Assembly: GCA_965233585.1 (NCBI GenBank)
Contig: CBDDTI010000746.1
Span: 192,001 to 256,000 of the forward strand
From: a bacterium
Lineage (GTDB): Bacteria; SAR324; NAC60-12
Direction: 5' to 3'
DNA length: 64,000 bases
Below the pieces are notes generated by a model. The model searched no databases, was not told where the DNA came from, and saw only the letters and a list, made by a program, of their open reading frames with translations. Positions 46,356 through 50,634 of this stretch are shown here, piece after piece; within the stretch, counting starts at the first letter, position 1; the number at the start of each line of letters is the position of its first letter. The translations under genes and the position numbers were made by a program.

Positions 46356-46862
46356 ATGCTTCGCAATTTTTCATCATTTAAGGGATTTAGGAACTCGTTG
46401 GAAGTGGTTCATTACATAGAGGGACGCATGAGGCTGCATGCACCTTCAGTCAACAAGTGGGAGCTAGTAGTAGAAGTCAAAGAGTTTTTAGAATCCAAAG
46501 CAAACCTTCAAATCCAAAGCAATCCTGTCAGTAAAAGTTTGCTGGTCTTGTTTGATTCCAAAACCCAAGAACCTTATGAAGTCTTTTTTTTAATCCTTCG
46601 TGCATTAGAGAAAATAGGAGCGATTCCAACTTCCAAAACGTCTGCCTTCCAAAAGCAATTTGTTTTGGGGTCTCAACTCTTGAATCATGGGATTTATGAA
46701 CAAACTCAAGGCAAGTTAGATTTATGGGGTTTGATGCCCCTACTTTATCTTGCTTTCTGTGTAAAAAGTCTTTTGAAAGGAGGGGGTATGAGACAACTGA
46801 CGCTTTTGACAATTCTTTGGCAAGTCTGGTCTTTCTGGTTTTCCAATCAAAAGAATCCATGA
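46356..46862 (+). CDS. HMA2-like (R-rich) domain membrane protein, fez-cluster accessory
   Basis: VVHYIEGRMRL, NPVSKSLLVLFD; C-terminal hydrophobic segments. Confidence 0.75.
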   Translation: MLRNFSSFKGFRNSLEVVHYIEGRMRLHAPSVNKWELVVEVKEFLESKANLQIQSNPVSKSLLVLFDSKTQEPYEVFFLILRALEKIGAIPTSKTSAFQKQFVLGSQLLNHGIYEQTQGKLDLWGLMPLLYLAFCVKSLLKGGGMRQLTLLTILWQVWSFWFSNQKNP

Positions 46863-46872
46863 AGCAGAAACG

Positions 46873-47295
46873 ATGAAGTGGATCAATGCCCTCAATCAGA
46901 AGCTGTTAAAGCCCAAAGTGGTGCATCGCCTGCGTGGAAGAATCAGGCTTGAATTGCCGTTGTTGAAGCACTTGCCAGCACATTTTTTGCCTGATGCCGA
47001 ACGTCTTGAAAAACTCACTCACCTATTTTCAGGACTCCAAAGCATCAGTCTTTCTTCCCAAACAATGCTGGTGACTTATGACCATGAGACTCTCAAAGAA
47101 GCAGATATTTTAGGAGCTTTAGAGTCCATCAGCGGTTTTATCATAGACCAAAAGTCTTTTTTTGAAAAAATGACTGACCAAGAATGCCTCAATTTTTTAG
47201 AAAAGCTAGAGAAGTATTGCATGCAACATGGTGTCCAGTCCTTGATTGTCAATCACAAAATCACAATCCCCTATGAAATTGACCCAACAAAATAA
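46873..47295 (+). CDS. Soluble HMA2-like (R-rich) domain protein, fez-cluster accessory
   Basis: VVHRLRGRIRL...QTMLVTYD. Confidence 0.75.
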   Translation: MKWINALNQKLLKPKVVHRLRGRIRLELPLLKHLPAHFLPDAERLEKLTHLFSGLQSISLSSQTMLVTYDHETLKEADILGALESISGFIIDQKSFFEKMTDQECLNFLEKLEKYCMQHGVQSLIVNHKITIPYEIDPTK

Positions 47296-49489
47296 GCCCC
47301 TGTTTTTATGTGAAATGGTGCATGAACTGCCGGGCAGAATCCGTTTTTCATGTCCTGCACTCAAATATTTGAAACCAGAAAAGAACAAGGTTGAACAAGC
47401 ATTGCTAAAAATTGAGGATGTGCAAAAAGCCAGTTTTTCTCACATCAGTTCCAATGCACTCATTCGCTACAATGATTCCAAACTAAACCCTGAAGTGTTG
47501 CTTGAAAAATGTGCAAAGGTGCTTTCAGAGTTTTCGCTAGTTGCTTTCAGGCGGGAGAGGCTTGAACAGGTGGAAGATATTGCCAAAGAAAGGAGGCTAG
47601 AGGGAGAAAGCGTTCAAAGCATGGTGCAACACACAGCACTGGCAGGTGGTGCAATGACTTTGTCACTTTTGCTAAAACTATTCTTTCCAAATTCTCCTTT
47701 TCTGATGGTCAGACAGGGATTGATTGGCAAATTTTTCAACTTCCCTGCACTAGCATCGCTAGCCTTGGCAATTCCTTTTTTTAGAAGTGGCTTTAAAGGA
47801 TTGATGATAGAAAAACGTCCCAATGCTGACACACTGACTGCAACCTCTATCGTGGCAGGCTTGGCAGCAGGGCAAGCCTCATCAACTTTGACAATCATCT
47901 TGCTTTCTGACTTTGCAGAGCTTCTTGCCTTGTATGGTCTGGAAAGGACAAGGGGTGCTATCCGAGACCTTTTGAAAACTCACGAGCATTCTGCATGGAA
48001 AGTCATTGAAGATTCAGGTCAAAAGACAACCATAGAAGTTCCCATTGAAGAGGTGGCAGTTGGGGACAAAATTGTCGTTCACACAGGGGAAAGAATCGGA
48101 GTAGATGGCAAAATCATTGAGGGTGAGGCTTTCATTGACCAGTCTTCAATCACGGGGGAGTTTATGCCAGTCCGTTGTGCCAAAGGACGTTCAGTCTATG
48201 CAGGGATGTTGGTCAAAAGTGGACAGGCTGTGATTGAGGCAGAACAAGTTGGCGAATCTACGGCAGCAAGTCGTGTGATTCAGCTGGTAGAAGATGCCAC
48301 CCATAACAAAGCCTGTTCACAAAATTATGCAGACCGCTTTTCTTCGGCATTGCTTCCAGTGAATTTTGTGCTGGCAGGATTGGCTTATTTACTGACACGC
48401 AACCCTGAAACCGCAGTCAATTTGCTAGTGATTGATTTTTCATGTGGCATGAGATTATCGGCGGCGACAGCATTTTCTTCTGCCATTGCAGCATCTGCAA
48501 GGCAGGGAGTTTTGATTAAGGGGGGAAATCATCTTGAAAACTTTGCCAAAGCCAACACGCTTGCTCTTGACAAGACAGGGACAATTACAGAAGGTCAACC
48601 CACGGTGCAAACTGTCATCACCTTTGACAAAACAGAAGCAGACGTTTTGAAACTTGCCGCAGCAGCAGAAGAAACCTCATCGCACCCTATTGCAACAGCA
48701 ATTTTAGCAAAGGCAGAGACGATTCCCAGTCATGGGACAGTCAAAGTGATTGCAGGGCAGGGAGTCCAAACGACGGTGGCTCGTCAAAGTGTCAAAGTAG
48801 GTTCAAGATTTTTCATGTCTCAAAATGCGTTGGATTTGTCCCATGTTCGGGAGGCAGAAAAGCAGATTGCTGAAAACTATGAAACCCCCGTTTATGTGGC
48901 TTATGGACAAAAAGTTGTGGGTTTGTTGGGGATTCAAGACCAAATGAGGCAGGGCATTAGACGTTCGGTGAATTGTATGAGAAGACACGGAATTGATGAA
49001 GTGGTGCTTTTAACAGGGGATACCATCACACCAGCCAAAGCAGTTGCTTCCCAAATCAATGCAGACCGTATGATTGCAGAATGCTTGCCTGAAGAGAAGT
49101 TGGAGAACATTTTGCACCTCCAGCATCAAGGTTCAAGAGTCGTCATGGTTGGGGACGGAATCAATGATGCGCTGTCTTTGGCATATGCTGATGTTGGAAT
49201 TGCTATGGGGCTTAAAAGCTCTGACATTGCATCGGAAACGGCAGACATTTCTATTTTGCGTGATGACCCACTTTTGTTGTCTGCCACTCAACAGCTTTCT
49301 GTGAAAACAATGAAGGTGGTCAATCAAAATTTTGCCGCCGTCATTGGAATCAACTTAGCCGTGATGCTACTTGGGGCATCTGGCACGATTCCTGTCTTTT
49401 GGGGGGCAACATTGCACAATCTGACAACGATTGCAACCTCTCTTAACTCTGCTCGTTTATTTTTCTCTGACCTACAAGACTATTTATAA
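47273..49489 (+). CDS. Heavy-metal P1B-type ATPase with DFSC and HNxxT motifs (P1B-6, FezB-like)
   Basis: VHELPGRIRF N-terminus, TGE, VIDFSCG, DKTGT, SHP, LLTGD, GDGIND, LHNLTT; no CxxC domain. Confidence 0.9.
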   Translation: MKLTQQNKPLFLCEMVHELPGRIRFSCPALKYLKPEKNKVEQALLKIEDVQKASFSHISSNALIRYNDSKLNPEVLLEKCAKVLSEFSLVAFRRERLEQVEDIAKERRLEGESVQSMVQHTALAGGAMTLSLLLKLFFPNSPFLMVRQGLIGKFFNFPALASLALAIPFFRSGFKGLMIEKRPNADTLTATSIVAGLAAGQASSTLTIILLSDFAELLALYGLERTRGAIRDLLKTHEHSAWKVIEDSGQKTTIEVPIEEVAVGDKIVVHTGERIGVDGKIIEGEAFIDQSSITGEFMPVRCAKGRSVYAGMLVKSGQAVIEAEQVGESTAASRVIQLVEDATHNKACSQNYADRFSSALLPVNFVLAGLAYLLTRNPETAVNLLVIDFSCGMRLSAATAFSSAIAASARQGVLIKGGNHLENFAKANTLALDKTGTITEGQPTVQTVITFDKTEADVLKLAAAAEETSSHPIATAILAKAETIPSHGTVKVIAGQGVQTTVARQSVKVGSRFFMSQNALDLSHVREAEKQIAENYETPVYVAYGQKVVGLLGIQDQMRQGIRRSVNCMRRHGIDEVVLLTGDTITPAKAVASQINADRMIAECLPEEKLENILHLQHQGSRVVMVGDGINDALSLAYADVGIAMGLKSSDIASETADISILRDDPLLLSATQQLSVKTMKVVNQNFAAVIGINLAVMLLGASGTIPVFWGATLHNLTTIATSLNSARLFFSDLQDYL

Positions 49490-49493
49490 GCCT

Positions 49494-50327
49494 ATGCAAG
49501 AACTGACATTGTCTATTGTCCATCAACAGAAGGGGAGAATGCGGCTGCGACTCTCTCATCATCTTTTGTATTGGGAAAAATTCCGCACTCGCATTGTCTC
49601 CAATCAAGCAGTGGAACAACTGCAATACACACCTGTTGTCAAAAGCCTTTTAGTACATTTTGACGCTCAACAAATCAAGCCAGAAGAATTGATTTTGCGT
49701 CTGGCAGTGACTTATTCCCTTGAGCATCACTTCACGCCTGTTAAAGTCTCATTTGATGGACAACATCACCCTCCAATGGAACAACCTGCTGTTTTGTCTG
49801 GTGTGTTGCTAGCATTGGCTGTTGTGGCAAAGTTTCCACTGGCAGCTACAAGACCTTATCAAAAATTGTTTGAGGTTCTGGCTTCAGGAGGTGTGGCATT
49901 GGCTGTGTTCAATCATGGACTCAAAGAATTTCGGGAGAGGGGAGACATAGACCCTGAGGTTGTTTCTGTGTTATACCTCGTGTCTGCTCTGTTCAGCGGT
50001 CGTTCCGTTCTTTCTGCAGGGGTTCTTACATGGTTCACATCGTTTAGTCGGCATTTGTTGTTGGAATCTATCGGGTCTTTGAAAGTCCATGCCTCTCCTG
50101 TTCATCAGTTAGATGATGGGGTTTTTGAAGTCAAAGTGACTCGTGAAAAACAACATCTGCGGGAATTATTAAGAAGATTTTCAGCACTGGCTGCCATCTT
50201 CTATGCAGGTGGTCGTTCAGAAGCAGAAAAGACATTGCGTGAGCTTCAAAACTCTGTCAATAGTCAGCATAACATTCTCAAAGGCTTGGAGGGACACCAC
50301 TCAAGCATCAATCTTGTTGTGAGATAA
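49494..50327 (+). CDS. HMA2-like domain plus membrane domain protein (FezC-like)
   Basis: IVHQQKGRMRL, YTPVVKSLLVHFD; TM pairs resembling the N-terminal membrane part of P1B ATPases (IDPEVVSVLYL). Confidence 0.7.
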   Translation: MQELTLSIVHQQKGRMRLRLSHHLLYWEKFRTRIVSNQAVEQLQYTPVVKSLLVHFDAQQIKPEELILRLAVTYSLEHHFTPVKVSFDGQHHPPMEQPAVLSGVLLALAVVAKFPLAATRPYQKLFEVLASGGVALAVFNHGLKEFRERGDIDPEVVSVLYLVSALFSGRSVLSAGVLTWFTSFSRHLLLESIGSLKVHASPVHQLDDGVFEVKVTREKQHLRELLRRFSALAAIFYAGGRSEAEKTLRELQNSVNSQHNILKGLEGHHSSINLVVR

Positions 50328-50391
50328 ACTTTTTGATTCCACAACATTTTTATCAAACCATATCTTAAATCTTAATTAAAGGAGTTTTAAC

Positions 50392-50634
50392 ATGAAATTA
50401 CACATTCAACATCTCACAGGATTCATTGCAGGCTTGGGCGTCTCTGCGTTTGGATACTATCTTTATCGTAAAAATCAAAGCAAAGTGGATAGATTTTTGG
50501 GAGATTTAGGCTTCCCTGTGTCTGAACCTACTTGCACCTACTCTGCGTCTCAAAGCCTAGAAGAACTTGTCCGCACCAAAGAAAGCATTGAAGATGCCAT
50601 CGCAGAAAAGGAAGCACAAGCCGATTCAAATTGA
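50392..50634 (+). CDS. Small GxxxG membrane protein with acidic coiled-coil tail (FezA-like)
   Basis: AAGGAG RBS; TM GFIAGLGVSAFGYYLY; tail LEELVRTKESIEDAIAE. Confidence 0.75.
   Translation: MKLHIQHLTGFIAGLGVSAFGYYLYRKNQSKVDRFLGDLGFPVSEPTCTYSASQSLEELVRTKESIEDAIAEKEAQADSN

Follow-up and report, generated by a model that had tools for sequence, protein, structure and literature searches.

A five-gene operon of a SAR324 bacterium pairs a D[YF]SCG-type P1B-6-group pump with a predicted half-pump and may form a ferrosome-like iron store

Ferrosomes are a recently found organelle. A candidate operon for a structure of this kind is found in a 64,000-nucleotide stretch of DNA from a SAR324 bacterium (positions 192,001 to 256,000 of contig CBDDTI010000746.1, assembly GCA_965233585.1), which is referred to here as the window. 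Five genes at window positions 46356-50634 encode a predicted P1B-6-group ATPase (the pump), a membrane protein that resembles a truncated pump, two further proteins with arginine-rich (R-rich) HMA_2-type domains and a small protein with a glycine-motif helix. The gene content, gene order, clade of the pump, putative ligand set and paralogy of gene 4 to the pump are observed features of this operon. From these features, and with about even confidence, the operon is read as a ferrosome-like module for Fe(II) sequestration, built on a pump that carries the motif D[YF]SCG and belongs to a sister clade of pumps with D[YF]SCA (called SCG and SCA pumps below).

The five open reading frames (ORFs) all run in the same direction on the + strand and are intact. 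They are as tightly packed as a preliminary description of this DNA had reported, with intergenic gaps of 10, -23, 4 and 64 nt in gene order. The features, in window coordinates, are these:

46356..46862, + strand: gene 1, 168 amino acids, FezC-like, with an R-rich HMA_2 domain and a C-terminal hydrophobic helix pair
46873..47295, + strand: gene 2, 140 amino acids, a predicted soluble, chaperone-like protein with an R-rich HMA_2-like domain
47273..49489, + strand: the ATPase (pump), 738 amino acids, likely ATG start at 47273, assigned to the P1B-6 group and the D[YF]SCG clade
49494..50327, + strand: gene 4, 277 amino acids, likely ATG start at 49494, a predicted 'half-pump' with a C-terminal extension
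50392..50634, + strand: gene 5, 80 amino acids, a small FezA/PacL-like scaffold candidate with a GxxxG helix and an acidic tail
50674..50702, + strand: candidate terminator hairpin of 13 pairs, 3' of gene 5, weakly supported because the count of such sites in the region is not above that in shuffled sequences

The operon is present as a single copy in the assembly. A contig from a public run, which is possibly the source sample itself, spans 44500-50944 with 0 differences, and a second sample from the same study covers 44500-47820, also with 0 differences. Among the 2,505 ORFs on the assembly's five gene-dense contigs, the R-rich motif H-x3-G-R-[IMLV]-R is found exactly 4 times. All four occurrences are in the operon, and this confinement is therefore not due to chance. 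They are the four that had been noted before, except that HELPGRIRF is the N-terminus of the ATPase itself, which leaves three stand-alone R-rich proteins and not four. None of the five operon proteins contains CxxC. The Pfam model HMA_2 (PF19991) matches the ATPase and genes 1, 2 and 4; the score exceeds the cut-off of 30 bits for gene 1 (73 bits) and the ATPase (43 bits) only. GC content reveals no clear island at the operon, and a sigma-70 promoter scan of the region scored below shuffles.

The ATPase carries DFSCG in transmembrane helix 4 (TM4), Asn694 in TM5, HNLTT in TM6 and the motif DKTGT. Its N-terminus is an R-rich HMA_2 domain with HELPGRIR and without CxxC, so that the pump motifs listed in the preliminary description (DFSC, HNLTT and the lack of CxxC) are all recovered. 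DYSCG is found in 119/119 of the top homologues, which are 43-47% identical to the ATPase and include proteins from Desulfofustis, Desulfosporosinus, Clostridium aceticum and Fusobacterium. HNxxT is present in all 120 sequences of the homologue set. The putative ligands D388, S390, C391, N694, H715 and N716 are invariant within the SCG rows of a 46-row alignment, and the putative TM4-TM6 ligands are common to the D[YF]SCA pumps. The Gly of DFSCG aligns not with a ligand but with the Ala that follows CPC in CopA and ZntA, and the residue that distinguishes SCG from SCA pumps is probably not a ligand. The two types also differ in the acidic residues of helices M1 and M2. No solved P1B-6 structure was matched by sequence; the best matches are to CopA (E 5e-77).

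Trees of 44 and 46 proteins place the pump in relation to known metal transporters. They were computed in quick mode with support from the Shimodaira-Hasegawa-like approximate likelihood ratio test (SH-aLRT) only, and 8 redundant rows were dropped before the 44-protein tree. The references are E. coli CopA, E. coli ZntA and S. aureus CadA, without verified CopB or PfeT/P1B-4 proteins, and the SCA rows are motif-chosen stand-ins for validated FezB proteins. The ATPase is far from CopA, ZntA and CadA, and thus not among the Cu or Zn/Cd exporters tested. It falls within a single SCA+SCG clade (SH-aLRT 97), in agreement with the P1B-6 type that had been proposed for it. In this clade, SCA and SCG pumps form two sister clades with support of 100 each, and the ATPase belongs to the SCG clade. 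Members of the SCA clade come from Azospirillum, Arcobacter, Cereibacter, Bacillota and other SAR324 bacteria. CtpC-like ACPC pumps are the nearest outgroup, just outside the SCA+SCG clade.

Gene 4 is predicted to be a truncated paralogue of the N-terminal third of the ATPase, comprising the HMA_2 domain and helices MA-MB-M1-M2 and lacking the catalytic domains. This identity is new here. In hhalign comparisons, residues 2-189 of gene 4 align with ATPase residues 9-219 (probability 98.5%, E 4e-15), and the membrane part without its HMA2 domain aligns with MA-M2 (75.6%, E 2.4e-5), compared with 0.3% for M3-M4 and 0.1% for M5-M6. The top VIA match of an AlphaFold model (pLDDT 85) among 48,161 chains is to residues 124-218 of ZntA (4umw; Z 9.4, root-mean-square deviation 4.0, 95 residues aligned), which is supportive only, because a Z of 9.4 ties with generic four-helix bundles. 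A Foldseek search with the same model found nothing at E<=0.001. Clustering at 50% leaves 160 representatives of the gene 4 family. All of the nearest Atlas clusters carry the annotation 'hypothetical', and no relatives were found in viral contigs. No half-pump accessory was found in the available portions of ferrosome texts, among them the main text of 10.1101/2020.01.10.902569. In one Riflebacteria record, a gene 4 homologue (P0168) is joined behind a cyclic-nucleotide-binding domain and is either a candidate fusion or a gene-calling artefact.

The remaining accessory proteins resemble partners known from fez clusters. Gene 1 matches positions 3-149 of the 154 in PF19991 (73.4 bits), and the Fusobacterium gene at the same operon position is likewise a full-length HMA_2 protein. 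Hydropathy gives no clear picture of the membrane segments of gene 1; a derivation of its C-terminus from a pump remnant was considered and rejected as not significant (hhalign probability ~1%). Gene 2 matches PF19991 under the cut-off (E 1.6e-5). It is missing between gene 1 and the pump at loci such as L063, L073, L102 and L116, and is an optional member of the operon. Gene 5, whose GFIAG motif and acidic tail are as first described, has homologues with GxxxG in 61 of 62 distinct sequences and a conserved tail with the pattern LEELV..KE.LEDLIAE. It matches no Pfam family and, at E 0.1, not DUF1490, which a PacL control matches with E 2.6e-40.

R-rich and GxxxG partners are part of the published fez description (bioRxiv 10.1101/2020.01.10.902569). 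Gene 5 is a small GxxxG protein of this kind (FezA-like), and genes 1, 2 and 4 supply the R-rich accessories, both soluble and membrane-bound (FezC/FezD-like). Family profiles of genes 1 and 4 match HMA2 proteins of SCA clusters, with best E values of 3e-14 and 6e-12, and, in a set of 19 proteins, the gene 5 profile gives weak matches (E 6e-5 to 8e-4) to small proteins encoded in SCA-type clusters. The kinship with fez partners that had been supposed for the accessory proteins is therefore borne out, if weakly for gene 5.

Operons of this type are not confined to one lineage. All five genes are found in the same order in Fusobacterium vincentii (NZ_CP084075.1), and the Fusobacterium orthologues are 42.5% (pump), 36% (gene 2, E 4e-13), 28% (gene 4) and 48% (gene 5) identical to those of the window. 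Many Priestia megaterium plasmids carry a five-gene variant that differs from the window in the DFICG motif of its pump and in a shorter gene-4 equivalent. A literature search found no functional study of either operon. Among metagenome loci, 80 of 83 were fetched with gene 4 as the sole query. The pump lies directly upstream of gene 4 in 60 of the 62 loci with upstream DNA, and one of the two loci scored as pump-less is a threshold artefact where the pump is in fact there. Gene 5 is directly downstream in all 58 of 58 loci, and the TM4 motif is SCG in all 45 readable pumps adjacent to gene 4. The expanded set of R-rich proteins, once thought special to this lineage, is thus shared with F. vincentii in full and, as a core of pump, gene 4 and gene 5, with loci across metagenomes. 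A gene 4 profile gave only 2 weak matches in the 401 genomes of a second Bacillota draw.

Three observations on related loci may be added. The Priestia locus L042, which adjoins DUF1980 and permease genes, offers a culturable test system. At L080:8550-10850, a further P1B pump, which bears an HMA2 domain and an ASPC motif and is possibly FezH-like, directly follows gene 5. Bacillota pumps at L149, L152, L154, L155 and L156 combine ACPCA and HNxxT (CtpC-like) with an R-rich N-terminus, and two of these five are divergently paired with 1,530-amino-acid P2-type ATPases that start with an R-rich motif.

Within SAR324, HMA_2 matched 7 of 88 genomes. Five other genomes (G073, G082, G083, G084 and G076) carry SCA-type clusters, at L034, L035, L036, L039 and L040, whose D[YF]SCA pumps are 30-34% identical to that of the window and are accompanied by other accessories; one of these clusters adjoins feoAB. 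Searches of the other 87 SAR324 genomes revealed no cluster of the SCG type. Approximately unbiased (AU) tests, run on 19 rows under quick LG+G4 with groups named after the earlier tree had been seen, reject a grouping of the ATPase with the other SAR324 pumps (p 1.5e-7). Since the other clusters are SCA-type and none is SCG-type, the operon of the window was acquired separately from them. A single-protein scan of the genome contigs found only two CopA-type pumps. Titles and abstracts yielded no paper that links SAR324 with fez genes, and no description of the D[YF]SCG type in the literature on SAR324, on Fusobacterium or on ferrosomes and manganese.

Among 44 other genomes of the bacterium's family, the sole HMA_2 match is a 712-amino-acid R-rich, HMA2-bearing ORF without DKTGT that is unrelated to the pump (L037:7025-9163, genome G008). 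Upstream of the operon, at 45035-45988, lies a homologue of XerC-like tyrosine recombinases in which the catalytic Arg, second His and Tyr appear to be replaced, as judged by eye without alignment. Its relatives in six genomes of the same family (29-32% identity) have different neighbours, and for this reason no insertion site can be mapped.

A mechanism can be proposed for how such an operon might store iron. Gene 5 would self-associate in the membrane through its GxxxG helix, and its acidic tail would bind the R-rich HMA2 domains of the pump and of genes 1, 2 and 4, thereby collecting these proteins in one membrane patch. Binding by the tail is modelled on the binding of PacL to the N-terminal domain of Ctp pumps. 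According to the available part of PMC13043812, a GxxxG-like helix drives the self-association of PacL, and acidic residues of PacL recruit the CxxC-less N-terminal domain of its pump into clusters. Gene 4, as a catalytically empty mimic of the pump, could be a structural filler or partner in the patch, and genes 1 and 2 could be adaptors or chaperones. Cytoplasmic Fe(II) would pass through the pump by way of an Asp/Ser/Cys-Asn-His/Asn site and enter a compartment formed by invagination, to be stored there as iron phosphate (a ferrous phosphate mineral). The accessible parts of two C. difficile studies state that ferrosome iron mineralises as ferrous phosphate (10.64898/2026.06.16.732667) and that, in E. 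coli, FezA and FezB are enough to produce ferrosomes (10.1101/2025.09.22.677801). In the SAR324 bacterium, the module might buffer iron delivered by many siderophore/heme-type ATP-binding cassette (ABC) importers and so replace ferritin.

The fez systems available for comparison are fezABC of D. magneticus, the six-gene operons of S. putrefaciens and R. palustris (bioRxiv 10.1101/2020.01.10.902569) and, from partial texts, fezAB of C. difficile. Like these, the operon of the window combines in one unit a P1B-6-group pump that has an R-rich N-terminus, no CxxC and HNxxT with a small GxxxG protein and with soluble and membrane R-rich accessories. Unlike them, it has D[YF]SCG in place of D[Y/F]SCA, has lost a later TM4 proline, belongs to a separate clade of pumps, includes the four-helix half-pump, and resides in a probably aerobic bacterium in which no Fur was found. 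Manganese-type neighbours in part of its pump's clade are a further difference.

The genome of the bacterium tilts the choice of metal toward iron. Of its 12 Mb assembly, five large gene-dense contigs contain ~2.9 Mb, and a further 705 low-coding contigs, with a median long-ORF coverage of 0.11, account for ~8 Mb. The latter are probably foreign, non-bacterial (host) DNA, and the bacterial genome would be ~2.9 Mb or somewhat more. In family searches of this genome, which is 92% complete (controls matched in 5 to 14 of 14 genomes), no ferritin (controls 14/14), FeoB, Nramp, MntP or Fe/Mn superoxide dismutase was found. There is one DtxR-family regulator and one ZnuABC, whose ZnuA-family binding protein is His-rich and zinc-like. 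The large iron uptake island reported near the operon is real. It occupies 25621-38413, ends ~7.9 kb before gene 1 and contains five Peripla_BP_2, three FecCD and two ABC ATPase genes of the iron-siderophore/heme type. Because the island is not conserved beside homologues of the operon, its proximity is weak evidence; the abundance of iron uptake and the undetected manganese machinery nevertheless favour iron here. An imperfect palindrome at 25567-25584 overlaps the likely promoter of the island and is a candidate site for a DtxR-family regulator, with a match at only 13/18 positions.

Several findings weigh against a ferrosome-like iron store. FezB is defined by D[Y/F]SCA together with HNxxT (bioRxiv 10.1101/2020.01.10.902569). 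The ATPase has the HNxxT motif (as HNLTT) and the R-rich N-terminus without CxxC, but DFSCG in place of the TM4 signature. The later TM4 proline is absent from 120/120 SCG sequences and kept in 119/120 SCA sequences, and the AU tests described above also reject placing the ATPase inside SCA (p 1.9e-51). Plain FezB membership, as first suggested, is thus not upheld. Because the ATPase has neither the TM4 signature nor a place in the SCA clade, it is classed as a predicted P1B-6-group pump of a sister branch and not as FezB proper, although SCG pumps may already stand among the 304 published FezB homologues (bioRxiv 10.1101/2020.01.10.902569). CtpC clusters with P1B-6 pumps yet exports zinc (available part of PMC13460109), so that the clade alone does not fix function. 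Fur was not found in the family searches of the genome, and ferritin is also unmatched in 35 of the 87 other SAR324 genomes, which means that its absence here is not special. An aa3-type oxidase operon suggests that the bacterium is aerobic, and S. putrefaciens and R. palustris have no ferrosomes under aerobic growth (bioRxiv 10.1101/2020.01.10.902569). No convincing operator was found upstream of gene 1, where the best site agrees with Fur or DtxR boxes at 11/19 positions. Queries for FeoA, FeoB, TonB receptors and DUF2202 matched at 0/80 loci of the window's subclade. When homologues are grouped at 80% gene 4 identity (n=32) and neighbours are counted by tblastn, MntR/DtxR, Nramp or MntP genes adjoin 6 of the 32 groups, or 5 of the 15 groups for which 7 kb of DNA or more is available.

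These last neighbours are an argument for an unlikely alternative, in which the same architecture would store Mn(II) in a compartment, or buffer Mn, under the control of an MntR/DtxR-family regulator. Pfam searches of 82 flanking proteins (80 from the 149 ORFs at metagenome loci and 2 from the Priestia locus) identify DtxR/MntR-family regulators, Nramp, MntP, CDF and VIT1 beside homologues. The manganese-type genes occur on several branches of the tree, and the SCG clade has distinct entry residues in M1/M2. In three of the four regulators examined, Glu occupies the putative counterpart of the Cys position in DtxR, and the single DtxR-family regulator of the SAR324 bacterium could sense Mn. 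However, the Mn-linked pumps in the tree lie in one 11-row subclade that excludes the pump of the window, and the bacterium itself has no match for the Mn families searched and a zinc-like ZnuA-family protein. Fe(II) is also handled or sensed by proteins of the Nramp, VIT1 and DtxR families. The Mn queries were taken from the same loci that they were used to survey, many loci are short, and the sampling of habitats is narrow. In a draw of 401 Bacillota genomes with 40 loci fetched, feoA and feoB adjoin 4 of 14 loci of a related xCG branch, and Nramp or MntP adjoin none. The neighbourhood survey proposed at the outset has thus given a mixed answer. SCA loci are mixed as well: Feo or TonB-receptor genes are present at L039, L045 and L046, and five Bacillota SCA loci are without Feo genes, which makes the neighbourhood an imperfect marker of the metal. 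Distinctly improbable is a broader claim, that pumps of the D[YF]SCG clade, with the half-pump as a dedicated subunit, form a membrane-enclosed store of Mn, or of Mn and Fe. If true, an aerobic SAR324 bacterium would have acquired a ferrosome-like organelle for a non-iron metal, and such an organelle would be spread over Fusobacteriota, Desulfobacterota, Bacillota, Spirochaetota and Planctomycetota. A ferrosome-like organelle for another metal is listed as an open question in the available part of a 2026 review (PMC13463818).

The operon could also work without any organelle, which we consider possible but doubtful. Gene 5 would then cluster and stabilise the pump in patches of the plasma membrane, as in an effluxosome, and the pump would rid the cytoplasm of excess Fe(II), Zn(II) or Mn(II) by export into the periplasm, with PacL and CtpC/G/V as the model. 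Mycobacterial effluxosomes (PacL/DUF1490 with CtpC, CtpG and CtpV), as far as the available parts of PMC13043812 and PMC13460109 describe them, share with the operon a pump that has an R-rich CxxC-less N-terminus and HNxx[S/T], and a small membrane scaffold with a glycine-motif TM helix (GxxxG-like in PacL) and an acidic cytoplasmic tail. The CtpC-like pumps nearest to the SCA+SCG clade share the R-rich N-terminus and HNxxT as well, the exporters MntP, CDF and VIT1 adjoin some homologues of the operon, and the bacterium is apparently aerobic. The operon departs from this model in having DFSC and no CPC/APC, in a gene 5 with neither DUF1490 nor a His-rich C-terminal motif, and in three extra HMA2 proteins, none of which accompany the PacL-Ctp locus L043. 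Its pump is also nearer to SCA pumps than to CtpC-like ones. Very improbable, finally, is the reading that the operon, after horizontal acquisition, is in decay or has taken on another task, such as import, and has no role in storage. The long terminal branch of the ATPase (~1.0 changes per column) and the lack of SCG-type clusters in other SAR324 genomes would fit such a history, but none of the five reading frames is broken, the catalytic and ligand residues are still in place, and another record contains proteins that are 82% and 86% identical to those of genes 4 and 5.

Other features of the window accompany the operon. An azurin/plastocyanin-family protein with a twin-arginine-like signal (38414-39047) is preceded by a ~59-bp unit in about three tandem copies, and is followed by an IS1-family element with InsA and InsB frames (39670-40385). 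A 1273-amino-acid protein with a weak N-terminal match to class I adenylate cyclases (E 0.019) is encoded at 41062-44883, directly upstream of the XerC-like gene. Two tandem Kelch-repeat lipoproteins (50817-53664) lie directly 3' of the operon. Together with ankyrin-like proteins elsewhere in the window, they suggest a host-associated lifestyle.

If the operon encodes an ordinary ferrosome, it would be a range extension only, and if SCG pumps are already included in the published FezB set, it would be less new than it seems and add only a member to a known group of pumps. For SAR324, the separate origins mean at least two acquisitions of fez-type clusters. The operon defines a compact and widespread sister type, marked by D[YF]SCG, the lost later TM4 proline and the gene 4 family. 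The genomic context of this type is split between Mn and Fe genes and bears on the storage of other metals. Gene 4 as an empty pump N-terminus, together with the shared R-rich domains, may provide an assembly model that links ferrosomes and effluxosomes.

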